DNA of 64,000 nt, taken from assembly GCA_016699795.1 (NCBI GenBank), contig CP065011.1:418474-482473 (forward strand), written 5' to 3'. Every line of letters begins with the position of its first letter. Positions within the stretch are counted from its first letter, which is position 1. A model generated the notes under the pieces. The model did not search any database. It was given only the letters and a program-made list of their open reading frames with translations, and was not told the DNA's origin. Positions 3,699 to 55,256 of this stretch are shown here, one piece after another. This DNA is from Candidatus Moraniibacteriota bacterium. GTDB taxonomy: Bacteria; Patescibacteriota; Minisyncoccia; Moranbacterales; GCA-2747515. Both the position numbers and the translations under genes were made by a program.

Positions 3699-3703
3699 AA
3701 ATA

Positions 3704-5080: not shown

Positions 5081-5090
5081 ATGCTTAATA

Positions 5091-7716: not shown

Positions 7717-7963
7717 AAAAGCGACCTAAATCGATTAGATCGCCGAGAAGTTTCCGCTTGAGTGGACGACCCGGCGGAACTCACAGTCAAGAGAACACCA
7801 AGTGCCTCTATTGTGTGCACCGAATCGCCCGCTAAAAGGCGCAATAGAGACAAGCATGGCTTGTTTTCTTGATGTTTATTTGACTGTGAGTTCTATTATA
7901 AAATACACCCAAACAAAGCGTAATGCAACTTGCGAATTGTCCTGTTTATGAGAGAATGGGTGC

Positions 7964-8938: not shown

Positions 8939-8992
8939 TTCCATTTAGTTCCATATTCCATAAAAATTTTCGGAAAGAGTCATACTGCAAGT

Positions 8993-10917: not shown

Positions 10918-10966
10918 AAGGGTTTATAAACCAAATTTACCCCTATGTTATAAACCGATAATTACT

Positions 10967-11128
10967 ATGATTACCGAATCAGACGCTAAAAAATTTCAGG
11001 AACTATACGAAAAAGAAACCGGAAAGAAAATCTCTCTCAAGGAGGCTTTTGAACTGGCAGAAAATTTGGTGGACATGGTTCGGCTTATCTACAAGCCCAT
11101 TAAAAAGAAGGACCGCAAAGATTGTTAG
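10967..11128 (+). CDS. Small ORF (53 aa), hypothetical
   Basis: Read manually; 'MITESDAKKFQELYEKETGKKISLKEAFELAENLVDMVRLIYKPIKKKDRKDC'. It sits between the helicase-like gene and the recombinase. Below the 60-aa cut-off of the ORF track. Confidence 0.25.
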   Translation: MITESDAKKFQELYEKETGKKISLKEAFELAENLVDMVRLIYKPIKKKDRKDC

Positions 11129-11187
11129 AATTTTCAATGTCGCTATACAATCTGCATAGACAGTAACGTGCACAAATTGAAACCATT

Positions 11188-12795: not shown

Positions 12796-12859
12796 GCGGA
12801 ATCGAACCGCCGTCCTTAGCTTGGAAGGCTAATATAATAAACCATTATACGACACCCGC
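12787..12859 (-). tRNA. tRNA-Gly (anticodon UCC), no encoded CCA
   Basis: Manual fold: acceptor GCGGGTG/CACCCGC, anticodon stem TTAGC/GCTAA with loop CTTCCAA, T-arm GGCGG-TTCGATT-CCGCT. The weak D-stem is AT-rich. Confidence 0.75.
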
Positions 12860-26504: not shown

Positions 26505-27188
26505 ATGTTCGAACTTCTTATTGGAGGGATTTTTCTCTCCATGCTGATTTACGTTGGGTATAAGGTCTTCTTGGCTATTCCAAGAAAAGCGAGACCAACG
26601 ACAGTAACAACCTCAACACCAGCAACAACTTCCCTTTTTGCGAGTTTGAAAAAATTTGCAACGGGGTATGGGATGAGGAGATTTATTCTCTTTATCGTTG
26701 TCGGATCCCTTCTCTGGAATGAAACGAGAGAATCATTCTGGATGCAAGTAGTTCCTGACACGGTGAAAAAGCATGTCATTGGAGAAGTTCTCATCTCTTA
26801 CAAAATGAAAGATCTCAGAAAGGGAGAGACTCTAGATTGTCTCCCTCAAGGGATCTGGAAGTTTGTAAGAGTCCAGACACAAACCCCTCACTATCAGTAC
26901 ACCAAAGGAGATGGTTATTACACGGGGTTTTACGACAAAGAAGATCGCTCCTCGGTAGATCAAAAGACTGTTTCCAGACTTATCATCAAGGATGAAAAAA
27001 GATTTGGAAATCTATTGGTATCTTCGGATGTCAGTAGAAACAGACCCACCGGAGATGTAGTAGTAGTCAAAGGCGAGTGTCAAAAACTCACCGTTGAAAC
27101 TAATCTCCCACAGGAGTTCAAAGGCTACTCCCTTCTCGAGCTCGGGGGAAAAGGAAATCCCATCAAGCTCGCGTTTGAAAGGGAATGA
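26505..27188 (+). CDS. Hypothetical membrane protein, co-transcribed partner of band-7 gene
   Basis: 227 aa with two N-terminal TM segments. It starts 14 nt after the band-7 stop. Confidence 0.5.
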   Translation: MFELLIGGIFLSMLIYVGYKVFLAIPRKARPTTVTTSTPATTSLFASLKKFATGYGMRRFILFIVVGSLLWNETRESFWMQVVPDTVKKHVIGEVLISYKMKDLRKGETLDCLPQGIWKFVRVQTQTPHYQYTKGDGYYTGFYDKEDRSSVDQKTVSRLIIKDEKRFGNLLVSSDVSRNRPTGDVVVVKGECQKLTVETNLPQEFKGYSLLELGGKGNPIKLAFERE

Positions 27189-27196
27189 ATATTACA

Positions 27197-27227
27197 GGGT
27201 GATGCAAAATTTGCGTCACCCTTTTTT
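27197..27227 (+). terminator. Rho-independent terminator (gggtgatgc..gcgtcaccc + T6)
   Basis: 9-bp stem with one G-U pair, then tttttt. Directly after the 26505-27188 gene. Confidence 0.6.
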
Positions 27228-27287: not shown

Positions 27288-27914
27288 CTATTCCATAAGT
27301 AATCCTATTTGACGCACAATGAGCAATGAAGCAAGTGCGATAGTAAGTCCCACAAGAGCATAAATAAATATTTTTTTACCCGTTTCAATTCTTTTTTCAC
27401 TTCCACCAGAAACAAGATACATAATACCTCCCACAACCATCATAATAAGAGAAATAACTCCCACGATAGCAAGGAGAAAATTCAAAACATTAAGAGCGAT
27501 ATCTATGAGTGGGGTGGCACTTTCTACCGGAGTTTTAACAACATTTGGTCCAGCTTCAAGAATCAGATAAATTTCTTTAAGAAACGTTGGTGCTACTATT
27601 CCTATAGCAAGTCCTATCATCGAAGCGAGAACTGCGCCCTTAGCAATTTTTATCGATCCTTCATTTCCCCCACTTGTGGTATAAATAACACCGCCAATAA
27701 CCAAAAAGACAACAGAGAGAAGTACGATAATTCCCTGAAGATATTCAAGAATAGAACCAAGAACGCCTTGTACCGTGTCATAATTAAGTGGATTTTGCCA
27801 ATAAATTCCAGATGCCCCAGATGATGCAAATGACTCCATGGGTACACAAAAAAAGAAAAAAAGAAAAATACTTATCCCCAAAAAACGATACTGTATTTTT
27901 TTCATATTTTTCAT
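27288..27914 (-). CDS. TrbC/VirB2-like (T4SS-type) pilin-family protein, two tandem pilin-like modules
   Basis: Signal peptide plus two copies of the hydrophobic-GG-(I/V)YxTSGG...KxxxxAxxIGLxIGI motif shared by the paralog cluster. Confidence 0.65.
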   Translation of the reverse strand: MKNMKKIQYRFLGISIFLFFFFCVPMESFASSGASGIYWQNPLNYDTVQGVLGSILEYLQGIIVLLSVVFLVIGGVIYTTSGGNEGSIKIAKGAVLASMIGLAIGIVAPTFLKEIYLILEAGPNVVKTPVESATPLIDIALNVLNFLLAIVGVISLIMMVVGGIMYLVSGGSEKRIETGKKIFIYALVGLTIALASLLIVRQIGLLME

Positions 27915-27930
27915 TAAAAACTATTTTTAA

Positions 27931-29160
27931 TTAACCAAAAAACATAGCTATTTGACGCACAACTATAAGAGAAATGAGTGCTACTACAAGTCCAATACCT
28001 GAGAATATAACTATTTTTTTACCCGCCTCAATTCTTGCTTCACTTCCCCCTGAGAAAAGATACATGATACCTCCCACAACCATCATAATAATAGAAAGGG
28101 TTCCTATGAGAGTAAGAAGAAGATTTAATGTATTCATGAGTATTGTATAAATAGATGTTGCTTCACTCACTTCCGTAGGAATTTCTGTATTTCCACCAAC
28201 AATCGTATAAATTTCATTTAAAAACGTTGGCGCCGCTATCCCTAGAGCAAGTCCTATCATAGAAGCCAGAATTGCTCCCTTGGCAAGCGTTAGCATCTTT
28301 TCATTCCCCGAACTCGTTATATAAAGAACTGCTCCGATTATAATAAACACCAATGATAAAACAACAATGACTCCCTGAAAGAAATTGAGCATCGCAGTAA
28401 TAACTTGCTGTAATGTATTATATTTAAAAGGATTTAAAAATTGGTAGTACGCCGAAGTCCCCCCTCCAGCACTTCCTCCTGGAGGAGGCGTGCTAACTTT
28501 ACAGCAAATTTTACCTGAATCACATGGTATGCTCAGTAATTTAGTTCCCGTACACTCCGCATCCGAAACACAAGATCCCCCAGCAGCTTGACATTTATCT
28601 TGTGTCGTGTTTTGTGTGCAACACTTAGGTGTTGTGGGTGTTGTTGGACATTCACCAGCAGAAGTCCAACCCGCTGAACAAGTTGCAAAACAAACACCAT
28701 TTCCACTAGAACAGCTTTGGGCGCTCGGGATACAACATTGCGGAGTAGCTCCCTTACAAGGAGAAGTAGAATCAGTGAAAGATTTCTCGTTTGCTCCACA
28801 ACTCGCTTTGCACGAACCTTGTCCCTGTGCACACTTAACTTCAGGAGTTGAGTCTTTGCAACAGACAGTATTGGGATCTCCATCACAATTCCCCTGACCA
28901 GGATCTTTTCCGGCAGGACAAATTCCCGCACCAGGAATACATTGTGCTGGGGCTTGACAAGTTGATATCTTTTCAGTACAAGGTTTTACAATATTTGGAT
29001 AAAAACTTTGTCTATTTTGACATTCTCCTATAGTAGAAAAACATTGCTCAATTTGAGATCCTGAAACATTAGCTATAAAACAATACTGAGCAGCCAAAGA
29101 ATCTTGAGCTGAGAAAAAAAATATTCCGAAGGCAAGAAATAAAACAAGGAAAAATCGCAT
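27931..29160 (-). CDS. Cys-rich extracellular domain fused to two TrbC/VirB2-like pilin modules
   Basis: Signal peptide, about 200 aa with more than 30 Cys in CxxC/KCC patterns, then two 'YITSSGN...AKG..LASMIGLALGI' pilin-like modules. Confidence 0.65.
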   Translation of the reverse strand: MRFFLVLFLAFGIFFFSAQDSLAAQYCFIANVSGSQIEQCFSTIGECQNRQSFYPNIVKPCTEKISTCQAPAQCIPGAGICPAGKDPGQGNCDGDPNTVCCKDSTPEVKCAQGQGSCKASCGANEKSFTDSTSPCKGATPQCCIPSAQSCSSGNGVCFATCSAGWTSAGECPTTPTTPKCCTQNTTQDKCQAAGGSCVSDAECTGTKLLSIPCDSGKICCKVSTPPPGGSAGGGTSAYYQFLNPFKYNTLQQVITAMLNFFQGVIVVLSLVFIIIGAVLYITSSGNEKMLTLAKGAILASMIGLALGIAAPTFLNEIYTIVGGNTEIPTEVSEATSIYTILMNTLNLLLTLIGTLSIIMMVVGGIMYLFSGGSEARIEAGKKIVIFSGIGLVVALISLIVVRQIAMFFG

Positions 29161-29192
29161 ACATTTTATACATCTTATTTATTCTACATTCA

Positions 29193-29603
29193 CTAAAATA
29201 ACGAATTTCCATTCAACCACGCATCTACGGCATAAATGATAATAAGTCCAGATAATGCAGTAATAACACCCACTATTGACCAAATCATATATCGTTTAGC
29301 ACTGTCGATTTGATTCTCATCCCCTCCTGAAGTGAGGTACATAATACCTGAAACCACAAAAGCAATAATAGCAATAATTCCGAAAATACTCAAAATCCAT
29401 TTAAGAAAAGTATCCAAAACCGACCAAATAGGATTAGCGGGATCAGCTCCCTCAGAAAGTCCTGTCTCCGTAGGAACGCAAACACCTGAAAGCACATCAA
29501 AACCATCAGGGCATTCAGTTACAGCCTGTGACGTTTGAGAAAAAATAAAAAATAAACTAAAAAAAAGAATCAGAGCGAATGAAGAAAAAAAAGTGTATTT
29601 CAT
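29193..29603 (-). CDS. TrbC/VirB2-like pilin-family protein
   Basis: Signal peptide plus 'IIAIIAFVVSGIMYLTSGGDENQIDSAKRYMIWSIVGVITALSGLIII'. Confidence 0.7.
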   Translation of the reverse strand: MKYTFFSSFALILFFSLFFIFSQTSQAVTECPDGFDVLSGVCVPTETGLSEGADPANPIWSVLDTFLKWILSIFGIIAIIAFVVSGIMYLTSGGDENQIDSAKRYMIWSIVGVITALSGLIIIYAVDAWLNGNSLF

Positions 29604-29636
29604 ATATTTTTTATTTTATTCTTTTTTATGTAAAAA

Positions 29637-30020
29637 TTAAAAAAGAGCATTTCCATCAAGCCAATTACTTACCGCTGTAAGAATAATAACTCCTGAAAGT
29701 GCTATTACCACACCTATGATAGATCCTATCATATAGCGTTTAGCTGACTCTGTTTGTTTTTCATCCCCTCCTGAAGTGAGATACATAATACCGGAAATCA
29801 CAAAGGCAATAATGGCAATCATTCCCAAAATATACAAAAGCCAAAGCATAAGATTTTGAATAGTCTCCGCAATAGTTTTACTAGAAAGTCCGTAACCCGT
29901 ATAATTCCCCTTATTCCATCCAGAAGTAAGTGCAAGAGCGTGAGAAGAAACAAATGTTATTCCCAAAAGAATTATTCCCGGGAGAAAGGTCATTAACGAT
30001 TTTTTTTGATTCTTTTCCAT
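29637..30020 (-). CDS. TrbC/VirB2-like pilin-family protein
   Basis: 'IAIIAFVISGIMYLTSGGDEKQTESAKRYMIGSIIGVVIALSGVIIL'. Confidence 0.7.
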   Translation of the reverse strand: MEKNQKKSLMTFLPGIILLGITFVSSHALALTSGWNKGNYTGYGLSSKTIAETIQNLMLWLLYILGMIAIIAFVISGIMYLTSGGDEKQTESAKRYMIGSIIGVVIALSGVIILTAVSNWLDGNALF

Positions 30021-30201
30021 ATTTTTATTTTTTCAATAAAACTTATACATGTAGAATACCACAGATTTCCTTCTACACAAAACGACGCTTTTTCGCGTCG
30101 TTTTATCCTTTTCTCTTAAAGAGTGTAAGTTTTTATTCAATATATCTTTTGAGCTTAATTCTCTGCTAAAACAAAAATCTTTCTGTATTATTTGGAAAAA
30201 A

Positions 30202-30558
30202 TTAAAAATCATTACTTCCAGCAAGCCAACTATTTACAGCTGTAAGAATAATGAGACCTAGCAGGGCTACTACTACTCCTATTATAGCATACACCATAGC
30301 ATTCTTTGCTGTAGAGGCTCTATCATCACTTCCACCAGAAGTAAGATAGATCAAACCGGAGATCACAAAAGCAATAATAGCAATCATTCCCAAAATATAA
30401 AGAAGCCATTGCATAAGCCTTTGGATAACTGACCAGATTGTAGATTGTGATAATCCTGAACCATAACCTCCGGTACTAAGTTGAGCACTTACCGCTGCAG
30501 GAACAGTAAGAACGCACAAACTCAAAACATAGAAAGCTTTTTTTATAGTATTGATCAT
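30202..30558 (-). CDS. TrbC/VirB2-like pilin-family protein (tandem paralog A)
   Basis: 'IAIIAFVISGLIYLTSGGSDDRASTAKNAMVYAIIGVVVALLGLIIL'. Near-identical to 30911-31273 outside a variable mature N-terminal region. Confidence 0.7.
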   Translation of the reverse strand: MINTIKKAFYVLSLCVLTVPAAVSAQLSTGGYGSGLSQSTIWSVIQRLMQWLLYILGMIAIIAFVISGLIYLTSGGSDDRASTAKNAMVYAIIGVVVALLGLIILTAVNSWLAGSNDF

Positions 30559-30638
30559 TTTTCTTCACCTCCTTTCATTGTATTTTCGTTCATTTTTTTA
30601 TTTCTTTTATCTTTGTACTGAAAGTATATCATTTTTTT

Positions 30639-30821
30639 CTACTCAAGCAAAATACTGAGGGTGTAGAAAATAATCATAATCATAAGAATTCCTAATAAAC
30701 CCACGAGAGCAAAAAAAGTTGATCTTTTGGCCCGTTCTATATTTTTCGCATCTCCTCTTGAAAAAAGATATAAAACTCCAGAAAAAACAAAAGTAAGAAG
30801 GAAGATAGTGCCTGAGATCAT
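30639..30821 (-). CDS. Mini pilin-like membrane protein (60 aa)
   Basis: 'VLYLFSRGDAKNIERAKRSTFFALVGLLGILMI' matches the same motif. Identical to the C-terminal 60 aa of 31354-31623. Confidence 0.4.
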   Translation of the reverse strand: MISGTIFLLTFVFSGVLYLFSRGDAKNIERAKRSTFFALVGLLGILMIMIIFYTLSILLE

Positions 30822-30910
30822 GAAAAGGCCCTTCTAAATAATGTAAAGTATTTTTCTCCAAATAAAAACAGTGCTCGAGTGCACTGTTTTTATTTGAGTT
30901 CTCAATAAAA

Positions 30911-31273
30911 TTAGAATTCATTAGAATTCAATAGCCATGCATTAGCTGCATTAAGAATAATGAGACCTAGCAGGGCTACTACTACTCCTATTATAGCATA
31001 TACCATGGCATTCTTTGCTGTAGAGGCTCTATCTTCGTTCCCACCAGAAGTAAGATAGATCAAACCGGAAATCACAAAAGCGATTACCGCAACAAATCCA
31101 AGAATATAAAGAAGCCATTGCATAAGTCTTTGGATAGTCTCCCAAATTGTAGATGTTGATAACTCAGAGTCGGTCTTATATTGAGCCATATCTAATTGAG
31201 CACTTACCGCTGCAGGAACAGTAAGAACGCACAAACTCAAAACATAGAAAGCTTTTTTTATAGTATTGATCAT
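30911..31273 (-). CDS. TrbC/VirB2-like pilin-family protein (tandem paralog B)
   Basis: Same signal peptide and C-terminal module as 30202-30558. The variable region reads 'DMAQYKTDSELSTSTIWETIQ'. Confidence 0.7.
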   Translation of the reverse strand: MINTIKKAFYVLSLCVLTVPAAVSAQLDMAQYKTDSELSTSTIWETIQRLMQWLLYILGFVAVIAFVISGLIYLTSGGNEDRASTAKNAMVYAIIGVVVALLGLIILNAANAWLLNSNEF

Positions 31274-31353
31274 TTTTCTTCACCTCCTTTCATTGTATTT
31301 TCGTTCATTTTTTTATTTCTTTTATCTTTGTACTGAAAGTATATCATTTTTTT

Positions 31354-31623
31354 CTACTCAAGCAAAATACTGAGGGTGTAGAAAATAATCATAATCATAA
31401 GAATTCCTAATAAACCCACGAGAGCAAAAAAAGTTGATCTTTTGGCCCGTTCTATATTTTTCGCATCTCCTCTTGAAAAAAGATATAAAACTCCAGAAAA
31501 AACAAAAGTAAGAAGGAAGATAGTGCCTGAGATCGTGAGAAGAAAAAAGAATATCTTACGAAGAACTTCTGCTACCTTGGGAGCATCATCAATAACTCCA
31601 GCTTGGGCTATTTCAAAAATCAT
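31354..31623 (-). CDS. Mini pilin-like membrane protein (89 aa; N-terminal extension relative to 30639-30821)
   Basis: The C-terminal 60 aa are identical to 30639-30821. Confidence 0.45.
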   Translation of the reverse strand: MIFEIAQAGVIDDAPKVAEVLRKIFFFLLTISGTIFLLTFVFSGVLYLFSRGDAKNIERAKRSTFFALVGLLGILMIMIIFYTLSILLE

Positions 31624-31636
31624 AGATATATTACTT

Positions 31637-33034
31637 TTATCGACGAGAAAGTGTTCGAATACGTTCCTCTAAAAGACGAACAGCTTCAAAAATAGTTGTT
31701 TTCGCCGAATGAACATCATCAATTATTTGAGCCATTGTTGTTTCTATAGCGTCAGCATCATATTGTCTCCATGATCTTGCGATGAGATTTCCTGTTACGA
31801 AAGGCCCGAGAATGGGATCAGTTTTCTGTTCTTCAATAAGATCTCTTCTTGCTGCGGGAGATTTTGTTTTTTCTACATACACCTTAGCAGGATTTATTCC
31901 TATAGAAATTTCTTTTTGATTCCCTGATATAATATTTGTGAATAATTGAGGTCCTCCTTTGTGTACTGTGAGATAACGAAGGTATTGCCAAGATTCAAAA
32001 ATTCTTACGTCATCTTTATAAGCAGGATCAATTTCTCCTTGCGCTTTTTTATTTTTTGCTACAACGAATACCCAATAATTGGGATAATTAATTTCTGAAG
32101 CAGATCCCGCAAATTGAGGAAGGGGTGCTACAGCAAAGTTTAAGCGAGGATTCTTTCGTTTTATCGTTTCGTACTGCCAAGAATAATTTAGCATCATTGC
32201 CAAATCACCTTCTTGAAAAGCGTCTATGGAATAATCTTCCCGAAGATTCCAGCTATAGTAGGGAGAATTGATATCAGCAAATTGCTCATAAAACTGCAAA
32301 GCCTCTTGGCCTTTTGATCCTAGTATAGAAGAGGGGGCAGTCTTTTCTCTTGTTGTAAATTCTAGATTTGTTCCGAACTGAAGAAATAACATATTCAAAA
32401 TATCTGTAGCTCTATTAATATTTTTTGCCGTTCCTAAGGAAGTACCACTTCTTGTAATAGATCCTAGATTATCTTTTCTCGTTAACTGATTCGTAAGGGC
32501 AAGAAATTGATCCCATGTTTTTGGAGGATTCGTTATTCCTTCTATGTTAAAAATATCTTTGTTATAGTAAAGAGCTAAAGAATCAACGGAAAGGGGTAAT
32601 CCGTAAATTTTATCATCCAAAATAACATCATTAGCAACGACATCTACAAACTCTCTTTGGACAGTATCTCTGTTTAAAATTGCTCCAGAAGGAACGGGTG
32701 CTATTTTATCTTGAAATTCAGGAATCCATGTATTTCGAATAAGAAAAACATCAGGACCCTCTCCCGAAGCTAGTGCGGAAAGAAGATCTCTTTTGTACTC
32801 ATCCACAAGAACCTTTTTGTGTGTAATAGAAGATATAAACGGACTAGCAGTTTCATAAGCATCATTAATTTCAGCATATGCATAACTATCTTCTGTTGGT
32901 CCCCAAACTTCTAATTCAAGCTGATATCCTTCAGGACCCGAAACGGTAACATAAATAAGAAAAAGAATAGCTATTATCAAAAGAACCAAACCAACAGCTG
33001 CTGCAATATATGCAGGAAATTTTGATTTCATCAT
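31637..33034 (-). CDS. Extracellular solute-binding protein (ABC transporter SBP family 1-like), membrane-anchored
   Basis: N-terminal TM anchor, about 430-aa periplasmic-binding-protein-like domain ('LEVWGPTEDSYAY...', 'NYPNYWVFVVAKN'). Confidence 0.7.
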   Translation of the reverse strand: MMKSKFPAYIAAAVGLVLLIIAILFLIYVTVSGPEGYQLELEVWGPTEDSYAYAEINDAYETASPFISSITHKKVLVDEYKRDLLSALASGEGPDVFLIRNTWIPEFQDKIAPVPSGAILNRDTVQREFVDVVANDVILDDKIYGLPLSVDSLALYYNKDIFNIEGITNPPKTWDQFLALTNQLTRKDNLGSITRSGTSLGTAKNINRATDILNMLFLQFGTNLEFTTREKTAPSSILGSKGQEALQFYEQFADINSPYYSWNLREDYSIDAFQEGDLAMMLNYSWQYETIKRKNPRLNFAVAPLPQFAGSASEINYPNYWVFVVAKNKKAQGEIDPAYKDDVRIFESWQYLRYLTVHKGGPQLFTNIISGNQKEISIGINPAKVYVEKTKSPAARRDLIEEQKTDPILGPFVTGNLIARSWRQYDADAIETTMAQIIDDVHSAKTTIFEAVRLLEERIRTLSRR

Positions 33035-33615
33035 ATCGCTTTTTCTTTTTTAATAAAAAGGAACCCGTAATGATAATCTCCTACAGAGACAACACGTTCA
33101 TCCCCAAGGCCAACTTCGTAAGCAAGTTTTAAAAGATCTTCTTTACGTAATCGTTTTTCAAGAGGTGGTCCTAAAACATTAGAAGGATCTGAATCCCATT
33201 CAGCTAGAAAAACCATTCCTCCAAGAGCAAGAACCCTCACAATTTCTTCCAAAATAACTTTCTTATCTTGGTTCATAAAAAGAATGTCTTTAGCAATGAC
33301 AAGATCAATACTCGCATCATCAAGTGTTGATCCTCCTAATTTTTCTAAATTTACTCTTCTTGTTTCGATACTATTTAAAGATTCCATCATCGCACGACTC
33401 TCTACAGACTCTAATGCTTGAGTCAAGATATCTAATGCATATACTTTTCCAGAAGGTGCTACGCGTCGTGCTGCCTCAATAGTAAAATGTCCAGCTCCTG
33501 TACCAAAATCAGCAACATGCATCCCTAAGCGAATAGGTATCTGATCAAAAATTTTATTTGGTTCAAGAAATGATTTTGTTTTTATAGTTTCATTTGGCGA
33601 AGTGTTCGGATCCAT
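33031..33615 (-). CDS. Class I SAM-dependent methyltransferase
   Basis: 'HVADFGTGAGHFTIEAARRV' (motif I GxGxG), 'VYALDI' (motif II), 'IDLVIAKDILF' (motif III). 4-nt overlap with the SBP gene. Confidence 0.75.
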   Translation of the reverse strand: MDPNTSPNETIKTKSFLEPNKIFDQIPIRLGMHVADFGTGAGHFTIEAARRVAPSGKVYALDILTQALESVESRAMMESLNSIETRRVNLEKLGGSTLDDASIDLVIAKDILFMNQDKKVILEEIVRVLALGGMVFLAEWDSDPSNVLGPPLEKRLRKEDLLKLAYEVGLGDERVVSVGDYHYGFLFIKKEKAI

Positions 33616-33853: not shown

Positions 33854-33943
33854 GGAGAGATGCTAGAGTGGTCGAATAGGACAGTCTCGAAAACTGTTGT
33901 ATCGGAAACGGTACCGTGGGTTCGAATCCCACTCTCTCCGCCA
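33854..33943 (+). tRNA. tRNA-Ser (anticodon CGA), long variable arm, CCA encoded
   Basis: Acceptor GGAGAGA/TCTCTCC+G+CCA, anticodon stem ACAGT/ACTGT with loop CTCGAAA, T-arm GTGGG-TTCGAAT-CCCAC. Confidence 0.85.
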
Positions 33944-35449
33944 AAATTGGAAATCGGAATCAGAAGCCGAAATGGGGTCGGCGCGAAGCGCCGACGCAAA
34001 CGCATTCCCGCCAAAAATTCCCGAATTCAAAAGGTTTTTCCACGCTCCGCGTGGCTCAAAAAAGACGGTTCGATCCTTAATTTGAAAGTTCGAACCGACT
34101 TTTTTAAACAAATGAAGAAATTCTTCATTTGTTTTCTCGTTAGCCAATTCCACCATATAAATATTGGCTTTTAGAAGATTTTCGGTAAGTTCGAACCGAT
34201 TATTGGATTTTTTCTCAAAAGCCGATAATTTCTCTTTTAAAAGTTGTTTTTGATTCACTAACTTATTTTTAGAATCACGATATTCTTCCAAAGACAGAAC
34301 ATTTTCTAAATATAAGTTCATCAACTTTTCAACTTTTGAATCCAAAAGAGAAATTTCATCTTTTGTTTTTTGAGAAAAAATCTCACTCGATTGATTTTCT
34401 GATTGTCGGTTTTTCTCATTTTCGACAATCATCCAATTTGCCCAATCGAGTGGCAAAGAAACTTTTTTGATACTTTCTGCAATTTGAGAAGTGATGAGTT
34501 CTTCGCGAACATATTTTTGCAAGCAAGGATTTTTCCGTTTGGTACATCGCAAATAATTATGACCTTTTTGGGTTTCAGTGGTAATGAAACAACCACATTC
34601 TCCACAACGGAAAAATCCTCTATACAAAAATGGTTTCAGTCCTTTGGAGTGAGGTTTAGATTTCCTCATCATCACTTCTTGAACGGAATCAAAAAGTTTC
34701 TTTGTGATAATCGGTTCGTGCTTACCCTCAAAAATCTCTCCGTTATACCTCATTAAACCCGTATAGATAGGATTTTTGAGGATTTGCTGATAGTTCGACA
34801 CCGCAAGTTCCTTTCCGCTTTTTCGCTTCAATCCAAGTCCGTTAAATTTGTCGCGGAGTTGTCGCAAAGTGAAAGACCCAGACGAATATGCCTCAAATGT
34901 CTTTTTAATCAGTTTAGCAATTTCAATATCGGGAATGATTCCAGCACCTTTCACATTTACATATCCGAGCGGAGACATTTGAGGCCATATTCCGTCTTTC
35001 ACTTTGTTGCGATGACCTCGTTTGATATTTTCTGACAAGTTATCTACATAATACTTGGATTGCGAAAAAGCGATTGAGAGCATGAACTTGCCTTGCGGTG
35101 TCGGATCACACCAGAAAGTTGGAAATTTTAGCTCGGCAATTTTGCCCGTATCGAGCAAGTAAATAACTTTTCCACCATCAACACTATTTCTCGCTAATCT
35201 GTCGGGATGCCACGCCAAAATTCCATTTGCTTCACCTTGCTCGATACGGAGAAGCATTTCATTAAATACTGGCCGACCCGGAGATTTTGCAGTTTGTTTT
35301 TCTACAAAAATATCAACGACATCAATATCCTCTTTTATCGCCAATAGTTTGAGTTCGGCCAGTTGATCCGAAATGCTTCTCACTTGCCGATCTTCGGTGT
35401 CGATTGATTTGCGAGTATAGATAAAAAACTTTCTGGTGTGATTATTCAT
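33863..35449 (-). CDS. Large serine recombinase (C-terminus uncertain: ORF reads through flanking repeat and tRNA-Ser)
   Basis: 'YTRKSIDTEDRQ' catalytic motif, 'CGECGCFIT' zinc ribbon. Paralogous to 11188-12795. The last ~60 codons are translated repeat/tRNA sequence ('EWDSNPRY'), so the true stop is probably lost or lies near 34100. Confidence 0.75.
   Translation of the reverse strand: MNNHTRKFFIYTRKSIDTEDRQVRSISDQLAELKLLAIKEDIDVVDIFVEKQTAKSPGRPVFNEMLLRIEQGEANGILAWHPDRLARNSVDGGKVIYLLDTGKIAELKFPTFWCDPTPQGKFMLSIAFSQSKYYVDNLSENIKRGHRNKVKDGIWPQMSPLGYVNVKGAGIIPDIEIAKLIKKTFEAYSSGSFTLRQLRDKFNGLGLKRKSGKELAVSNYQQILKNPIYTGLMRYNGEIFEGKHEPIITKKLFDSVQEVMMRKSKPHSKGLKPFLYRGFFRCGECGCFITTETQKGHNYLRCTKRKNPCLQKYVREELITSQIAESIKKVSLPLDWANWMIVENEKNRQSENQSSEIFSQKTKDEISLLDSKVEKLMNLYLENVLSLEEYRDSKNKLVNQKQLLKEKLSAFEKKSNNRFELTENLLKANIYMVELANEKTNEEFLHLFKKVGSNFQIKDRTVFFEPRGAWKNLLNSGIFGGNAFASALRADPISASDSDFQFWRREWDSNPRYRFRYNSFRDCPIRPL
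34057..34105. terminator. Long near-perfect palindrome (16-bp stem) with A6/T6 flanks; likely terminator/true 3' end of recombinase gene
   Basis: aaaaaagacggttcga ... tcgaaccgactttttt. Confidence 0.45.
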
Positions 35450-35586
35450 AAAATTGTATTGGCAAACGAGGAGCCACGCGGAGCGTGGCGAATCCTTGCA
35501 GAATCAGGATTTTGTGGGGGGAATGCAGAACAGACGGCGCTTCGCGCCGACCATATTTTTGGTTCTGAAACCCTTTTCGAAAAATT

Positions 35587-35945
35587 GCGGTATTCATTGT
35601 ACAAAATTCGAACCTTTTTTGAAACCAATCCCGATGAGGAATGAATCGCCCCGCCACCGCCTCGCAGAGCCTCGGCAACCCCGAAAGAAAAAACACTCCT
35701 TGCATTTCTGATTTGGCGGGGGTGAATTTTCTTTTGAAAAAGGAAAGGGTGTTTTTCTTTCGGGGTTCTGCCCTCCAAGTATTCGGGCAGTGTGGCGGGA
35801 CGAAATGCGGACTCGGTTTTGCCAAAACTATTTTCTGGGGGAAAGGATTTGGCAAAACCTCGACTGAATTTCCCGCCCGCAGGAGGGGTCTGGGGAGGAA
35901 TGCGGGCGGGTTTCGGACTGGGGGTTTTTGGAAATTCGGCGGCTA
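35587..35945. repeat. Left copy of perfect ~359-bp inverted repeat (GC-rich, multi-hairpin, apparently non-coding)
   Basis: It is the reverse-complement of 39017-39375. The 98-120-aa ORFs on both strands have identical translations at the two loci and are low-complexity. Internal hairpins include ccccgaaagaaaaaacac/gtgtttttctttcgggg, ggttttgccaa/ttggcaaaacc and cccgcccgca/tgcgggcggg. Confidence 0.85.
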
Positions 35946-36043
35946 CAAAATCAGAAAATTCAGATTGAATAAATCTATAATTTTTGCTATCATTGTTTTG
36001 TGAGCAAAGAAAGAATCTTCTCATAAGATAATACTATCAAAGT

Positions 36044-36250
36044 TTGGATACTATGGCAACTATATCAGAAAACATAAAACGAATACGAACAAAACAAGGA
36101 TTGACGCAAGACGACTTGGCGAAGAAAGCGGACATCAAATACTCTACCCTTACAAAAATTGAGGGTGGTGTTGTTACAAAACCAAGTGTTCAAACAATCC
36201 AAAAAATCGCCAAGTCGTTGGGCGTTCCTATGGAGGAAATTTTGAAATAA
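36044..36250 (+). CDS. XRE-family helix-turn-helix transcriptional regulator
   Basis: 'IKRIRTKQGLTQDDLAKKADIKYSTLTKIEGG' is a canonical HTH_XRE sequence. 68 aa. Confidence 0.8.
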   Translation: MDTMATISENIKRIRTKQGLTQDDLAKKADIKYSTLTKIEGGVVTKPSVQTIQKIAKSLGVPMEEILK

Positions 36251-36251
36251 T

Positions 36252-37097
36252 ATGGATAATCAAGAAGAACAAAATAATATAGAAGTGCAACCTGATTTGT
36301 ATCTTGAATCACCAAAGGCTTTTCATCTTGAAATGCCTCCTTACCACAATTTTGATTTGTCCACTAAAGCTATTTCAAGAGCCATATATGAAATTTTAAG
36401 TAACAGATCAACTATTGATGCTTATTGTATTTGGTGCGGAAAAGAAGGCGTGTTTAGGGCATACAACTATCTATCTGATAATGTTTCTGTTCCTCCCTGG
36501 ACAAAAAGAAATAATGGATTGATAGAAATAGAGTATCGTTGCACTCGTAACGAATCCCATGCTTACCACACTTATTATTTTAAGGCGGGTGATTTTTTTA
36601 CAAAAGTTGGACAGTTTCCATCTGTTGCTGATTTTCAAATACCTCAAGTTGAGTCGTATCGAAAAATTCTTGACGAAGAACAATATAAGGAATTTACACG
36701 CGGGATCGGTCTATCCGCTCATGGCGTAGGTATCGGTTCATTCGTGTATCTTCGCCGTGTTTTTGAAAATCTTATTGAAGAAGCTCATAATAAAGCAAAG
36801 GCGGAAGACGAATCGTTCTCGGACGAAGCATATATACGAGCAAGAATGGATGACAAAATTGAAATGGTAAAAGAATATTTACCAGAATTCCTTGTCGAAA
36901 ATCGCTCATTATATGCAATTTTGAGTAAAGGTATTCATGCCCTAGGCGAAGATGAGTGTTTGCAATATTTCGAAACAGTGAAAATCGGAATTGAGCAAAT
37001 TCTTGACGAAAAAATTATTGCTAAAGAAAAAGCAGAAAAAGCCGCTTCTGCTCGTGCCGCAATTCAGAAAACACATGGCAAAATAAATGGAGTATAA
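36252..37097 (+). CDS. Hypothetical protein paired with XRE regulator (possible Abi/HEPN-like effector, unassigned)
   Basis: 281 aa. It starts 2 nt after the XRE stop. A CxxC pair lies near the N-terminus. No confident domain assignment. Confidence 0.5.
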   Translation: MDNQEEQNNIEVQPDLYLESPKAFHLEMPPYHNFDLSTKAISRAIYEILSNRSTIDAYCIWCGKEGVFRAYNYLSDNVSVPPWTKRNNGLIEIEYRCTRNESHAYHTYYFKAGDFFTKVGQFPSVADFQIPQVESYRKILDEEQYKEFTRGIGLSAHGVGIGSFVYLRRVFENLIEEAHNKAKAEDESFSDEAYIRARMDDKIEMVKEYLPEFLVENRSLYAILSKGIHALGEDECLQYFETVKIGIEQILDEKIIAKEKAEKAASARAAIQKTHGKINGV

Positions 37098-37102
37098 AAC
37101 TT

Positions 37103-37690
37103 ATGGAAATAAACAGACCAAAATCTAAACAACCGATTCCCGATAACGCCAAAAAGGTTTTTGCTGGAGTGCTTTTTGATGTCTATCAATGGGAGCAAGA
37201 ACTTTTTGACGGAACAAAAACTCTTTTTGAAAAACTGAAACGCCCTGATACCGTTGTCGTTTTTCCAGTTTTAGATGACGGGAAAATTATACTTACAGAA
37301 CAAGAACAACCCGGCAAAGAACCTTTTATCGGGGCGACTGGCGGGAGAGTTGATAAGGGCGAAGATATTTTGGAAGCGGCGAAACGCGAACTTCTTGAAG
37401 AAAGTGGTTACGAAGCATCAGAGTTTGTCCTTTGGGACGCCCAACACCCGACATCAAAAATTGATTGGGTTGTTTATACTTTTATCGCCAAAGGGCTTAA
37501 AAAAGTTTCTGAAATGAATCTCGATGCTGGCGAAAAAATCACTCTAAAGTTAGTTGATCTCGATGAGTTTATTGAAATTGCATTAAATAAAAATTTTGTT
37601 GAAAAGGAAATAATTCCAAAACTTTACGAGGCGAAACTTTACCCAGAAAAGAATGAAGAACTTAAAAAGTTATTTAACCCAAAATTTTAA
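37103..37690 (+). CDS. NUDIX hydrolase
   Basis: Nudix box 'GGRVDKGEDILEAAKRELLEESGY' (GX5EX7REUXEEXGU). Confidence 0.8.
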   Translation: MEINRPKSKQPIPDNAKKVFAGVLFDVYQWEQELFDGTKTLFEKLKRPDTVVVFPVLDDGKIILTEQEQPGKEPFIGATGGRVDKGEDILEAAKRELLEESGYEASEFVLWDAQHPTSKIDWVVYTFIAKGLKKVSEMNLDAGEKITLKLVDLDEFIEIALNKNFVEKEIIPKLYEAKLYPEKNEELKKLFNPKF

Positions 37691-37693
37691 TTT

Positions 37694-38086
37694 ATGAAAA
37701 CAATTTTAGTTGATGCCGTAGATGCGTTTGTTGTAGAAACCGAAAATGGTTTCGAGATTTTTGAGCCAGTGCAAAAAATGCTCAACGAGTTTCCAAACAC
37801 CAAAATAATTCTTACTGGTGCGAATGATGAACAGTTTAAGAAATTTGGTCTGGATAAAATGCCATATGAAGTTTTTACACTAAAACACGACCCTGAAAAA
37901 ACCAACTCCGAGTATTACAAAAAAATGCTTGAGCATTTTAACTTTAAGCCGGAAGATGTTGTTTATTTTGAGCACAACCCTGAAGCAGTAAAAAGTGCTC
38001 AATCAGTCGGTATCAAAACTCATTTTTGGGACAACGAGAAAAGACCATTGAGAGAGTTGAGTATTTTCTTGGAAAACAGCATTTAA
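37694..38086 (+). CDS. Small HAD-like hydrolase (putative phosphatase/nucleotidase)
   Basis: 'MKTILVDAVDAFV' is motif-I-like; 'KIILTGAND' and 'VVYFEHNPEAV' are also HAD-like. The assignment is tentative. Confidence 0.45.
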   Translation: MKTILVDAVDAFVVETENGFEIFEPVQKMLNEFPNTKIILTGANDEQFKKFGLDKMPYEVFTLKHDPEKTNSEYYKKMLEHFNFKPEDVVYFEHNPEAVKSAQSVGIKTHFWDNEKRPLRELSIFLENSI

Positions 38087-38089
38087 TAT

Positions 38090-39019
38090 ATGAAACCAAT
38101 CCTCGTAACTTGTTATGTAAATCCCGACCTCGACGGCGTTGCTGGCGCAATCGCCTACGGCGAATTTTTACAGAAAACTGGCAAAAATACTGTCGTAGGG
38201 ATTATTGGCGAACCACACGACGAAGCGAAGTATATTTTAGATTGCTTTGGCTTTGAATATCCGCCAATGATAGAAAACGCGGATAATTTCGATGAAGTGA
38301 TACTCGTGGATGCAAGCGACCTCAATGGACTTGAGGGAAAAATATCTGCCGAAAAAGTCATCGAAATTATCGACCACAGAAAAGTCCATGAGGCGGATAA
38401 ATTTCCCAATGCCAAAGCGCAAATTGAGCTTGTTGGTGCGGCCGCTACTCTTGTCGCAGAAAAATTTATGCAAAACAAAGTTGATATATCGAAAGAATCA
38501 GCAACACTTGTTTACGGAGCAATAATTTCCAATACCCTCAATTTCAAGGGAAGCGTTACCACTGACCGCGACAAAGTAGCAGCCGAATGGCTCAATAAGG
38601 TTGCGAAATTGCCCGAAGATTTTTGGAAAGATTTGTTTATCGTAAAATCAGATTTATCAGGCAATAAACTTACAGAAAGAATAGAGGGCGATTTCGCATG
38701 GTTTGTTATGGGCGACAAAAAAGTTGGTATCGCCCAAGTTGAAATGATTGGTGCTAAAAAACTTGTAGACAAAAGAAGTAGCGAGATTGTTCAAGTGTTA
38801 GATAAAATCAAAAAAGAGATGGGCCTAGATTTTATCTTCCAAAATACAATCGAGCTTGAAGATACAAAAAACTTTTTTGTCGCTCAAGATTCCGAAACAC
38901 AAAAACTTTTGGAAAAAGTTTTGAAAGTTCAATTTGCTGGCGTAGTCGCGGAGCGACCAAATCTGATTATGCGCAAGCAAATTGTTCCTTTGTTGAAGGA
39001 TGAGTTAGAATTGAAATAG
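38090..39019 (+). CDS. DHH-family phosphoesterase (NrnA/PpaC-like)
   Basis: 'ILVTCYVNPDLDGVAGAIAYGEFL', 'VILVDASD', 'IIDHRKV' are DHH motifs I-III. Its stop TAG lies inside the right inverted repeat. Confidence 0.7.
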   Translation: MKPILVTCYVNPDLDGVAGAIAYGEFLQKTGKNTVVGIIGEPHDEAKYILDCFGFEYPPMIENADNFDEVILVDASDLNGLEGKISAEKVIEIIDHRKVHEADKFPNAKAQIELVGAAATLVAEKFMQNKVDISKESATLVYGAIISNTLNFKGSVTTDRDKVAAEWLNKVAKLPEDFWKDLFIVKSDLSGNKLTERIEGDFAWFVMGDKKVGIAQVEMIGAKKLVDKRSSEIVQVLDKIKKEMGLDFIFQNTIELEDTKNFFVAQDSETQKLLEKVLKVQFAGVVAERPNLIMRKQIVPLLKDELELK

Positions 39020-39375
39020 CCGCCGAATTTCCAAAAACCCCCAGTCCGAAACCCGCCCGCATTCCTCCCCAGACCCCTCCTGCGGGCGGGAAATTCAGTC
39101 GAGGTTTTGCCAAATCCTTTCCCCCAGAAAATAGTTTTGGCAAAACCGAGTCCGCATTTCGTCCCGCCACACTGCCCGAATACTTGGAGGGCAGAACCCC
39201 GAAAGAAAAACACCCTTTCCTTTTTCAAAAGAAAATTCACCCCCGCCAAATCAGAAATGCAAGGAGTGTTTTTTCTTTCGGGGTTGCCGAGGCTCTGCGA
39301 GGCGGTGGCGGGGCGATTCATTCCTCATCGGGATTGGTTTCAAAAAAGGTTCGAATTTTGTACAATGAATACCGC
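39017..39375. repeat. Right copy of perfect ~359-bp inverted repeat
   Basis: Reverse-complement identical to 35587-35945 over the whole length compared. Confidence 0.85.
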
Positions 39376-39399
39376 TATAGAGTTTTTTCCAATATGGGA

Positions 39400-39690
39400 T
39401 TAATTTCCCGTATTGGAGAAAATATTGTGAAAAATCAAAGGGATTCGAACGGGTAGGAGCGAGTCCTCGAGTATCGATGGATGCGAATAAATGAGCATTC
39501 AGCGCTACCCAGGACAACGAACTCCCATTTTGGGAGTGAGGCGAAAATCCCACTCTGGGCAGTGAACGAAGTGAATGAGGAAGAGAAAGAAAGCAAAGAG
39601 TTTTGCTTTCTTTGGAATGAGAAGGGACTTGCGAAGCGACAAAAGTCACCGAAAGTCCCCGGCCCGAAGGGGAATCTCTCTCTTACTTAA
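39400..39690. other. GC-rich structured non-coding arm of the tRNA-Ser element
   Basis: No credible ORF. Contains 'GGGATTCGAACGGG', reminiscent of the tmRNA tRNA-like domain, and a 'GAAAGTCCCCGGCCCGAAGGGG' hairpin. Related sequence recurs in the mini-element after tRNA-Pro(CGG). Confidence 0.35.
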
Positions 39691-39727
39691 AAAAAACTCT
39701 CATGCCCTAATTCATGAGAGTTTTTTA
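39689..39727. terminator. Bidirectional terminator (ctctcatg...catgagag with A8/T7 flanks)
   Basis: 8-bp stem with an A-run before and a T-run after. It lies downstream of the minus-strand gene 39755-41947 and at the right edge of the tRNA-Ser element. Confidence 0.6.
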
Positions 39728-39754
39728 TTTCCTATACTTTCGAAGTAGAATTAT

Positions 39755-41947: not shown

Positions 41948-42397
41948 AGTTGTGTGTTTTAGGTTATAGTAGTAATGATACTCTTTTGTGGGAGATGTTC
42001 AAGACTTTATAATTTTTCTCTATTGTAAAGTAATTTTCCAACGATGCAGTGCTTGAGAATTTCTTTGTGAACTGCATATATTAGTAGCGCTTGTTTTAAA
42101 TTTCGCACAGTACACATAGAAAGATCCGTTTGCTATATGATTTGCGGAAGCATTATCACTAACTACCGTACAATATTGATATCCACCATCTAAGCCTTGT
42201 TGACTTGCTGGTTCTTCTACGATAGTTTTTGAGAATTCTCCCCTATTTATATATAAAAATTATTCAAAAAAGCATTCTATGTAATTCTTTTTCTACTACA
42301 GAGCTTTTTTAAAATTTTTACTTTCCAAAAAATGATTTTCTTTACTTATTGTAATTAAACACTTTTTCATTGAATAATTCTTATAGACAAAATAAAA

Positions 42398-42940
42398 ATG
42401 TTGTGCTACATTTTCCTCATGGATGCGCCTAGTGATTTTTGGTTATGGATTTGGATTCTTTCTGGAGGAATAATATTTCTTCTTCTTTTTCTTACCTTAC
42501 TTTGGATTTACGTTCGAAAAATTAATGAAACGTTAAAAATTTTTTTTTCTGGCACGCAAGAAGCTAAAGACTTTGAATCCGTTATTATAGAAAATATACG
42601 TCACACACAACAACTTGAAAAAGATGTAAAAGACCTCGCATCCTTCAGTAATAATGTTTATCGATTAGCCACAAAAAGTCCTTATAAAATGGGCCTTATA
42701 AGATTTAATCCTTTTAAAGATATTGGAGGAAATCAAAGTTTTGCCCTTTCTTTTTTGGATAAAGAAAAAACAGGTATGGTTATTTCATCTCTTTATACCC
42801 GAGAAGGAACGAGGATATACGCCAAACCTGTTTACAAAGGAGAGGCTCTGGATGGTTATGAATTTTCAAAAGAAGAAAAACAAGCTGTAATCCAAGCATC
42901 AATAAAAAAAATAAAAGGATTTCAAAAAAGTGAAAAGTAA
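42398..42940 (+). CDS. DUF4446-like membrane protein (hypothetical)
   Basis: N-terminal TM. 'RFNPFKDIGGNQSFALSFLDKEKTGMVISSLYTREGTRIYAKPV' resembles DUF4446. Family assignment from memory. Confidence 0.5.
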   Translation: MLCYIFLMDAPSDFWLWIWILSGGIIFLLLFLTLLWIYVRKINETLKIFFSGTQEAKDFESVIIENIRHTQQLEKDVKDLASFSNNVYRLATKSPYKMGLIRFNPFKDIGGNQSFALSFLDKEKTGMVISSLYTREGTRIYAKPVYKGEALDGYEFSKEEKQAVIQASIKKIKGFQKSEK

Positions 42941-54329: not shown

Positions 54330-54373
54330 AAATAATACTTTATTTTATATTTTATCGCTATTGAAAAATATTT

Positions 54374-54961: not shown

Positions 54962-55256
54962 ACTTTTATAAGAATTGATATATTATTTTTACATTTTATA
55001 CAAAAACTTCTCTTTAGCTTGAAATTATATAAAACTACTCCTTAGTGTATTCCAACAAAAATATCTTGTCAAACCAAAAGAAACCAATTATACAAAAAAA
55101 CACAACATATTGTGCTTTTTCAATAAAAAAAACACAATCAATGTATTTCATACAATAAAAATACTCTCCAAAAAACCTTCGAATTTTTCTTATTATAAAG
55201 ATTAGGAAGGCTTCTTCACTAAAAATTTTAGAAAAAATACAATTAAGATACATACA

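Follow-up and report, generated by a model that had tools for sequence, protein, structure and literature searches.

Tandem arrays of genes for VirB2-like pilins are known from the Patescibacteria, or Candidate Phyla Radiation (CPR), and were highlighted in a 2025 review of type IV secretion systems (T4SSs). Quinonero-Coronel et al. reported 441 such arrays of 2-11 genes in 383 Patescibacteria assemblies, counting as an array those pilin genes that lie in tandem or one gene apart, with a highest within-array identity of 54% (Quinonero-Coronel et al., 2025; PMC12102498). The authors found pilin genes near virB4 in 1135 of 1948 assemblies and, in their Table S1, give VirB4 as 'Yes' for two Moranbacteria; they detected no PrgB-like adhesins in Patescibacteria and found no adhesin for the T4SS of these bacteria (PMC12102498). 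In Southlakia epibionticum, the pilin series of the SEML1 T4SS cluster is essential (Wang et al., 2023; PMC10633639). Here we analyze an array of this type in a 64-kb stretch of DNA from an ultra-small Candidatus Moraniibacteriota metagenome-assembled genome (MAG), referred to throughout as the window. At positions 27288-31623, eight open reading frames (ORFs), named g1 to g8 from the low coordinate up, follow each other on the minus strand. Our favored interpretation, which we hold to be reasonably probable, is that this chromosomal array of VirB2-like (PF18895) paralogs encodes specialized subunits of one filament or surface structure, with g2 serving as a defensin-like, envelope-binding adhesin.

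The array shares with the published Patescibacterial examples (PMC12102498, PMC10633639) its PF18895/PF04956 membership, the tandem arrangement on one strand, a gene number within the range of 2-11, Sec signal peptides, a chromosomal position, and a monoderm, host-dependent phylum as its bearer. It differs from them in being unlinked from virB4 in the window and set in a conserved housekeeping locus, in holding recent duplicates (83% and 98% identity versus the published maximum of 54%), and in including covalent double-module pilins and a pilin with beta-defensin-like repeats, none of these being mentioned in the accounts of arrays that we consulted. As such, therefore, the array is of an already known kind; what appear to be new are its housekeeping locus without virB4, its ordered classes of which one is marked by a Shine-Dalgarno (SD) sequence, the covalent double pilins, and the beta-defensin-like repeat ectodomain.

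A first-pass annotation, made from the sequence alone, had described eight consecutive minus-strand genes here, and the ORFs lie at exactly the coordinates that it gave. The array is transcribed from g8 to g1, with 16-181 nt between genes. First comes g8 (31354-31623; 89 aa), a short-leader pilin-like protein with an 8-residue leader ending in AQA, the sequence GVIDDAP, and one two-helix module, followed by g7 (30911-31273; 120 aa), a single-module pilin whose Sec signal peptide ends in AVSA before the residues QL. The next two genes repeat this pair: g6 (30639-30821; 60 aa) is a 5'-truncated duplicate of g8 without a leader, and g5 (30202-30558; 118 aa) is a single-module pilin and tandem duplicate of g7, these two being copies 2 (g5) and 1 (g7) of the candidate major pilin. 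Two further single-module pilins with signal peptides are g4 (29637-30020; 127 aa) and g3 (29193-29603; 136 aa), the latter with a two-Cys loop in its mature N-terminus (CPDGFDVLSGVC). The array closes with two double pilins, the decorated g2 (27931-29160; 409 aa) and the 'naked' g1 (27288-27914; 208 aa), which has a signal peptide, a short mature N-terminus, an NPL.YDT motif, and two modules. The earlier statement that all eight carry a signal peptide has to be corrected, as the canonical Sec type is present in six only, with the short leader in g8 and none in g6.

All eight proteins match the Pfam family PF18895 (T4SS_pilin; gathering score 26.6 bits), six of them above the gathering score (g1 62.5, g2 58.6, g3 36.0, g4 45.7, g5 50.1, and g7 53.7 bits), while g8 (25.4 bits) and g6 (20.1 bits) fall under it and still align gap-free with the other modules. 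The assignment to a T4SS-pilin-like, VirB2-like family massively expanded in CPR is thereby upheld and agrees with the literature. Only g4 also passes the threshold of PF04956 (TrbC/VirB2; 32.5 bits, gathering score 27.9 bits), with an additional weak match to T4SS_CagC; g3 remains below it at 22.4 bits, and g1, g2, and g5 to g8 gave no PF04956 match at E<=1. These proteins resemble the TrbC/VirB2 pilins of diderm T4SSs (PF04956; A. tumefaciens VirB2, RP4 TrbC, F TraA) in that a signal peptide precedes a pair of hydrophobic helices, whose short polar connecting loop contains a conserved basic residue. Unlike the diderm pilins, they are encoded in an array without adjacent VirB machinery, belong to a monoderm envelope, give no profile match to solved pilin chains, and include within the array versions with tandem modules and with a large N-terminal ectodomain.

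A second line of relationship leads to mobile elements of Mycoplasma. The NCBIfam family NF045849, the Mbov_0395/MMCAP2_0565 pilin-like conjugal transfer protein, is matched by g1 to g5 and g7 at E-values of 1e-7 to 1e-4 and 22-31 bits, every match being below the cut-off of 40 bits, and g8 weakly matches MMCAP2_0566/Mbov_0396, a family whose tags are consecutive with those of NF045849 members and which is thus presumably encoded by the neighboring gene. Both are small two-helix proteins of the MPF-FATA-type monoderm T4SS of integrative and conjugative elements (ICEs). The Mycoplasma proteins are encoded on mobile ICEs beside the transfer machinery, whereas the present array is a core chromosomal locus. 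These sub-threshold matches also hint at a correspondence between the g8-g7 pair and a pair of ICE genes in MPF-FATA systems.

The C-terminal module that the first-pass annotation saw in all eight genes is indeed common to them, since ten modules of about 80 aa align without any gap and share an invariant Tyr, Gly, and Lys at or near the loop between the helices; g1 and g2 each contain two PF18895 match stretches and are the two double-module genes that it had named. Hydropathy and the AlphaFold2 model of g1 agree that each module forms a helical hairpin, a short polar loop connecting its two hydrophobic helices, and the single-module pilins of the window and of two syntenic relatives have invariant Tyr, two Gly, and Lys columns around the inter-helix loop, in the stretch SG..YLTS.G...AK. 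In the g1 model (predicted local distance difference test, pLDDT, 82.8), four long helices (residues 48-80, 85-118, 136-167, and 173-207) form two helical hairpins. No pilin-like ORF other than g1 to g8 was found in the window. The protein g2 is identical to IPN70_02185, annotated as a 'hypothetical protein' of a Candidatus Moraniibacteriota MAG and encoded on a contig of 1,186,598 bp, a source that bears out the CPR origin proposed earlier; we contend that the array deserves annotation as a VirB2-like pilin array instead of as 'hypothetical proteins'. As a separate observation, the last residue is aromatic in every single-module pilin with a signal peptide (ending in ALF, SLF, NDF, NEF, TGF, TSF, TAY, TDF, KDF, or TTF), both within 29193-31273 and in the counterparts of the two syntenic loci, L001 and L002, and such a residue is lacking at the C-terminus of the double pilins and of the g8 class.

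The most distinctive member is g2, which consists of a signal peptide (aa 1-23), a 4-Cys region (aa 24-65), four 6-Cys units, a Pro/Gly linker, an NPF.Y.T motif, and pilin modules at aa 245-326 and 332-409. The Cys-rich extracellular domain of about 200 aa that had been noticed as fused in 27931-29160 is present (aa 24-223, with 28 Cys); what had gone unremarked is that, behind the 4-Cys head, it repeats a beta-defensin-like unit of about 37 aa four times. On the minus strand these units lie at 28849-28965, 28723-28839, 28609-28719, and 28492-28599 (together 28492-28965) and follow the pattern C-x5-6-C-x3-6-C-x9-13-C-x5-8-CC, so that all four conform to the beta-defensin spacing C-x4-8-C-x3-6-C-x9-13-C-x4-8-CC. 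A hidden Markov model of the unit finds each of them in g2 at independent E-values of 1e-7 to 3e-6, and an alignment of 70 units from 77 double-pilin homologues has six invariant Cys columns.

Searched against sequences of the Protein Data Bank (PDB), the unit profile gave 23 matches at E-values up to 10, all 23 of them beta-defensins or the tick carboxypeptidase inhibitor with its beta-defensin fold (best E=0.0012). Among the 70 single units, 10 match PF13841 Defensin_beta_2 (best 1.2e-5) and 8 match PF00711 Defensin_beta, with a few matches to Defensin_big, Defensin_1, and Inhibitor_I68; the curated cut-offs are 22.2 bits for PF13841 and 21 bits for PF00711, and units of relatives exceed that of Defensin_beta_2 (33.4 bits in P0108, 25.8 bits in P0091, and 23.0-24.3 bits in single units). 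An AlphaFold2 model of g2 unit 4, built with the unit alignment, reaches a pLDDT of 89.1 and predicts a short helix (residues 2-5) and three strands (9-12, 19-25, and 30-34). Foldseek aligned this model to 16 PDB entries, of which 15 have the beta-defensin fold (crotamine, tick carboxypeptidase inhibitor, platypus DLP-1, and avian and human beta-defensins), with template modeling (TM) scores of 0.48-0.69 and root-mean-square deviations of 1.6-3.1 Å. Shuffling the non-Cys residues within each unit, with Cys spacing and composition kept, abolished all defensin matches, both of the profile to the PDB and of the units to Pfam (0/70). An artefact of Cys spacing is rejected by these two negative controls.

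The g2 units thus resemble beta-defensins (PF13841, PF00711; human beta-defensins hBD1-3, gallinacins, crotamine, tick carboxypeptidase inhibitor) in a six-Cys spacing that ends in CC, in a conserved Gly before the second and the fourth Cys, and in the predicted arrangement of an N-terminal helix and a three-stranded sheet. In beta-defensins the disulfides connect C1-C5, C2-C4, and C3-C6. The g2 units differ from these free, cationic peptides in being bacterial, neutral to acidic, and tandemly repeated inside a membrane protein. Because they are internal repeats of a 409-aa membrane protein and are not cationic, the predicted likeness is one of fold and not of the host-defence peptide class. 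Trans-defensins are described as known from animals only, with bacteria holding only cis-defensins (PMC11561630), and among the papers searched we found none that links defensin-like domains to Patescibacteria pilins. CPR genomes have been reported to be enriched in disulfide machinery of the MdbA/VKOR type (10.1101/335083).

At E<=0.001, a search of 1.84 billion representatives with the unit profile found no more than 41 proteins. These comprise CPR pilins whose N-terminal units are followed by double or single modules, one pilin that has the units at its C-terminus, proteins in which the unit is fused to GH25 lysozyme, Phage_lysozyme2, Peptidase_M23, or Peptidase_C39_2, a dockerin protein whose leader is of archaeal type, small secreted proteins of two units, and one nematode and one shrimp protein. 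Since the same unit travels with cell-wall hydrolases, envelope binding is suggested, and we take the unit to be a binding or scaffold module, most plausibly for bacterial envelope components, and not an antimicrobial peptide. A homologue search with the g2 ectodomain alone gave no matches. A comparison of 67 double-pilin homologues shows a pilin part of 165-188 aa at the C-terminus and an N-terminal part of anything between 44 and 299 aa, whose Cys counts peak at 6, 12, and 18. The closest homologue of g2 (P0002) is 77% identical in the aligned C-terminal pilin part and has a completely different ectodomain with 6 Cys. From this combination of a constant pilin part with a variable ectodomain, and from the swap in P0002, it follows that the exposed part is remodeled as units are gained, lost, or replaced.

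Outside the pilins, eight metagenomic proteins (P0078, P0079, P0081, P0083, P0087, P0097, P0100, and P0104) are Asn/Thr-rich, secreted, and probably eukaryotic, and carry 3-9 copies of the unit joined to a GH25 lysozyme, a phage-tail lysozyme, or an unassigned C-terminal domain. An architecture of multiple defensin-like units with a muramidase is apparently undescribed. The animal matches are P0084 (nematode) and P0080 (shrimp).

The setting of the array is conserved as well. On one side it is flanked by genes for RNase Y, iPGM, ClpP, trigger factor (Tig), pyrophosphatase (PPase), NusA, and an SPFH protein, and on the other side by those for a solute-binding protein (SBP) and a methyltransferase (MTase); the order MTase-SBP-array-SPFH-NusA-PPase-Tig-ClpP is common to L001 and L002, which come from two other Moranbacteria assemblies. 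A genome scan with one genome per species added 79 loci, mostly from Moraniibacteriota, all 79 of which hold a same-strand array of 2-9 such pilin genes. Across the 82 loci examined for neighbors (the 79 together with L001, L002, and the window), the SBP adjoins the array in 54, and Tig, ClpP, NusA, and MTase are near it in 37-41. Many contigs with arrays and synteny of the Moranbacteria type (among them L004, L012-L014, L017, and L018) are labeled 'uncultured Bdellovibrionales', 'Caldatribacteriota', or 'Bathyarchaeia' and probably represent mislabeled bins.

Not only the array and its synteny but also the paralog classes, and their order, recur across related CPR genomes. L001 and L002 keep both the locus and the order of the classes. 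The array of L002, which is the closest of the relatives sampled, runs g8-like, g7-like (two genes), g4-like, g3-like, and Cys-rich double pilin, and the class features are kept: the leader motif AxA followed by GVI(D/S)(D/E)AP, a signal peptide ending in AQ(F/L/W/Y), the N-terminus TSGW..NYTGYGL, and the two-Cys loop. The counterpart of g4 in L002 has the same mature N-terminus (TSGW..NYTGYGL), and counterparts of g3 with the same two-Cys loop are found in both L001 and L002. The order g7-like, g4-like, g3-like recurs across the 79 loci, with the double-module genes at one end (last or first), and pairs of a naked and a decorated double pilin are frequent, as seen in L014, L018, L033, and L069. 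This recurrent order in many related species points to classes with a division of labor between major and minor subunits and not to a free-running hypervariable family.

Expression signals single out one of these classes. A perfect 10-nt SD sequence (AAGGAGGTGA) precedes 2 of the 56 genes of the window, namely g5 and g7, in a genome in which SD sites are rarely used. Across the related loci the SD core is found in 31 of 77 genes of the g7-like class (40%), compared with 7.5% of background ORFs and 0-8% of the other pilin classes. On the minus strand, an intrinsic-terminator-like hairpin follows g7 at 30864-30891 (AAAAACAGTGCACTCGAGCACTGTTTTT), which was read from the sequence directly and was not listed by the consensus scan, and a palindromic, terminator-like hairpin follows g5 at 30079-30104 (AAAACGACGCGAAAAAGCGTCGTTTT). 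A putative extended -10-like element, TGATATACT, was recognized by eye upstream of both g7 and g5. With their perfect SD sequences and terminators of their own, g5 and g7 are candidate major pilins, and they probably provide the major structural subunit, the others being minor. A further terminator-like hairpin at 27196-27222, between g1 and the convergent ORF 26505-27188 (plus strand, 227 aa), marks the end of the array. This ORF has no Pfam or NCBIfam match, its SD sequence AAGGAGG is one of only three strong SD sites in the window, and in L001 a 189-aa counterpart adjoins the array.

On this basis, a scheme for the assembly of the structure can be outlined. After Sec export and cleavage by signal peptidase, each subunit would sit in the membrane as a hairpin of helices, its two termini facing outward and the short Lys-containing loop facing inward, a topology predicted because of the signal peptide and the two helices and one that agrees with established VirB2 biology. 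The g8 protein probably inserts by means of its short acidic N-tail. A VirB4-type machine encoded elsewhere would then extract g5/g7 and polymerize them into a thin filament, in which they would be the abundant major pilin, as their extended -10-like element, SD sequences, and terminators suggest, and g8, g4, and g3 would act in low abundance as minor subunits that prime or cap the filament. The double pilins g1 and g2 may be covalent four-helix 'pseudo-dimers' that fill two protomer positions, g2 presenting its four defensin-like, disulfide-knotted units on a Pro/Gly linker at the outward-facing N-terminus. In this position g2 is a likely adhesin for the host envelope and would stand in for the VirB5/PrgB adhesins, which are missing from Patescibacterial T4SSs. 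Variation in the exposed parts would come from tandem duplication and gene conversion and from 6-Cys units being added or lost.

Several observations weigh against this scheme. For no species has a visualized pilus of this family been reported in the papers that we consulted. The assignment of major and minor roles is based on translation signals alone. The profile of the single-module pilins matched no solved VirB2 or TraA among the PDB sequences, and the full g1 model found only generic helical bundles in the PDB (BAR, 14-3-3, and MsbA), which is uninformative for VirB2 membership. With regard to the adhesin, the units of g2 itself stay below the Pfam defensin cut-off, the best of them, unit 2, scoring 17.3 bits (E=0.0064), and units 1 and 4 have no Pfam defensin match; the Foldseek E-values for the 36-residue model of unit 4 (0.56-9) are not significant; and the net charges of the g2 units are 0, 0, +2, and -2, with a family mean of -0.7. 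Human beta-defensins 1-3 carry net charges of +4 to +11.

The T4SS machinery itself is also missing from the vicinity, as no gene for it was found among the ORFs of at least 110 aa in the window and no VirB4-like ATPase within ±10 kb of the array in the 79 related loci. Three large Walker-A ORFs near related arrays were rejected as VirB4, looking by eye like FtsK, an ATP-grasp enzyme, and a surface protein. Given its conserved housekeeping setting and the absence of virB4 within ±10 kb, the array is a core chromosomal locus of the lineage, genetically separate from the T4SS ATPase. In Paceibacteria, virB4 has been located near dnaA/dnaN in the literature.

It is this missing linkage, in the window as in the 79 related loci, that keeps alive an explanation without any pilus, which we regard as rather unlikely but as the strongest competitor. 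The modules would then be permanent membrane anchors that display variable ectodomains at the surface and are never extracted or polymerized, and the T4SS would be irrelevant to them. A place among housekeeping genes and the lack of a direct match to solved conjugative pilins would suit such anchors, and a tight helical filament of the VirB2 type may have little room for an N-terminal domain of 200 aa or for two covalently joined modules. The modules, however, share homology with TrbC/VirB2, for which g4 exceeds the Pfam threshold, and with pilin-like proteins of ICEs; the homologous pilin series of Southlakia lies inside a T4SS cluster and is essential; and distance from virB4 is no rarity, pilin genes being located away from it in 813 of 1,948 VirB4-positive assemblies (PMC12102498). 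Moreover, a plain anchor needs neither six or seven ordered, conserved classes nor a strongly expressed member without decoration.

The recent history of the array bears on a different explanation, namely that its paralogs are interchangeable variants of one subunit, kept for antigenic or host-range switching. A 715-bp tandem duplication has copied the 3' part of g8 together with g7 into g6 and g5. Across their common part g6 and g8 are 98% identical, and the ATG of g6 arose at the duplication junction; g6 is probably a by-product remnant of this event, and a functional gene was judged unlikely for this 5'-truncated, leaderless copy of g8. The modules of g5 and g7 share 83% amino acid identity, and their signal peptide, SD sequence, and 5' region are identical. 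A tract of 339 nt (30481-30819 = 31196-31534) is 100% identical between the copies and covers the 3' part of g6/g8, the intergenic region, the SD sequence, and the g5/g7 signal peptide, while its flanks have diverged by roughly 10-15%. Directly downstream of the tract, the mature N-terminus of 14 aa is the most divergent stretch between g5 and g7, with many substitutions and a 2-aa indel. In the module, the synonymous divergence (dS) is 0.41 and the non-synonymous divergence (dN) 0.146, with zero substitutions upstream. Such a mosaic of an identical tract beside diverged sequence indicates gene conversion or recombination.

The short leader of g8 (MIFEIAQA, followed by GVIDDAP) is shared with other species: the g8 class, with its AxA and GVI(D/S)(D/E)AP motif, comes first in the arrays of many related loci; its signal peptide is complete in some species, and in many only a leader of 8-14 aa is present. 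As the short-leader form is kept across species, g8 is not a broken gene, and its interpretation as a pseudogene or truncation was rejected.

Tandem VirB2 copies of Bartonella and Anaplasma, which are thought to diversify surface-exposed parts (cited in PMC12102498), offer the model for a variation cassette, and Quinonero-Coronel et al. proposed the same for Patescibacteria (PMC12102498). The tandem duplication, the conversion tract between g8-g7 and g6-g5, and the divergence of g5 and g7 at the mature N-terminus would be expected from it. The Bartonella and Anaplasma copies are, however, near-equivalent variants beside a virB operon in diderm animal pathogens, whereas the classes of the present array differ in architecture and expression signals, and those of g8, g7, g4, g3, and the double pilins follow a recurrent relative order across many related species. 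Neither inverted repeats nor invertible promoters were detected. The dN/dS ratio is about 0.35-0.7 for the pairs g5/g7, g3/g4, and g1/g2; as it is below 1 in all three paralog pairs, positive selection is not supported and diversifying selection is not demonstrated. We therefore find a variation cassette improbable for the array as a whole, and the idea probably applies only to the g5/g7 pair. The variable mature N-termini of the first-pass annotation hold as a description and not as evidence of selection for diversity, and its surface diversification fits the g2-type ectodomains and the 14-aa N-terminus of g5/g7, the paralogs otherwise recurring as ordered classes.

Least probable of all, in our view very much so, is an offensive or processing function. 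The defensin-like units would here be a bacterial 'defensin' weapon, delivered where the cells touch and active on the membrane or cell wall of the host either after release or while still attached, with the pilin part as a mere carrier. In favor of it, the units are like beta-defensins in sequence and predicted fold, the same unit is joined in other organisms to the lytic enzymes GH25, phage lysozyme, and M23, and Patescibacteria must draw nutrients from their hosts (PMC11665869). Against it, the units are not cationic, no protease site or cleavage signal is evident between them, and in the lytic fusions another domain supplies the catalysis, an arrangement that would fit targeting better than killing.

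Apart from the array, the window contains two island-like blocks. The interval of about 8.7 kb between the methyltransferase gene (33031-33615) and the DUF4446 gene (42398-42940) measures only about 1 kb in the syntenic L001, for which reason the block 33854-42300 is probably an integrated island. It carries a tRNA-Ser (33854-33943), onto which the 3' end of a large serine recombinase gene (33863-35449) extends, and includes NUDIX, HAD, and DHH genes and a 730-aa surface protein with InlB-B repeats (39755-41947). A second island-like block at 770-12859 contains genes for a NOV_C protein, an SNF2 helicase, a C5 cytosine methylase, a DnaG-type zinc-ribbon protein, and a large serine recombinase (11188-12795) whose 3' end overlaps a tRNA-Gly (12786-12859); the guanine-plus-cytosine (GC) fraction rises to 0.45 at 10-12 kb. 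The lowest GC fraction of the window (0.28) is found at 54000-58000, where a 761-aa ORF (55257-57542, minus strand) has no Pfam match.

Returning to the filament with g2 as its adhesin, a much wider extension can be put forward, which we offer tentatively as a possibility that is more doubtful than probable. The 6-Cys unit may be a true and ancient homologue of animal beta-defensins, so that the trans-defensin fold would have prokaryotic members, and it may constitute an envelope-binding module that is widespread in CPR, probably present in DPANN-like archaea too, and shared by eukaryotic lysozyme fusions. On Moranbacteria pili, how many units there are and what sequences they have would then decide which host bacterium is gripped, and the T4SS-type pilus would be the host-recognition organelle of the non-Saccharibacterial Patescibacteria.

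The role of the Patescibacterial T4SS has been called 'completely unknown' (PMC11665869), and the locus supplies testable candidates in the g5/g7 major pilin pair, the conserved minor subunits, and g2 with its defensin-like exposed end. If the modules of g2 bind the bacterial envelope, they would offer a way into how hosts are recognized in a large lineage that is uncultured. A bacterial family of beta-defensin-like domains would also bear on the origin of the trans-defensins, which current reviews restrict to animals, and the defensin-like domain is the part of this locus that is most worth following.

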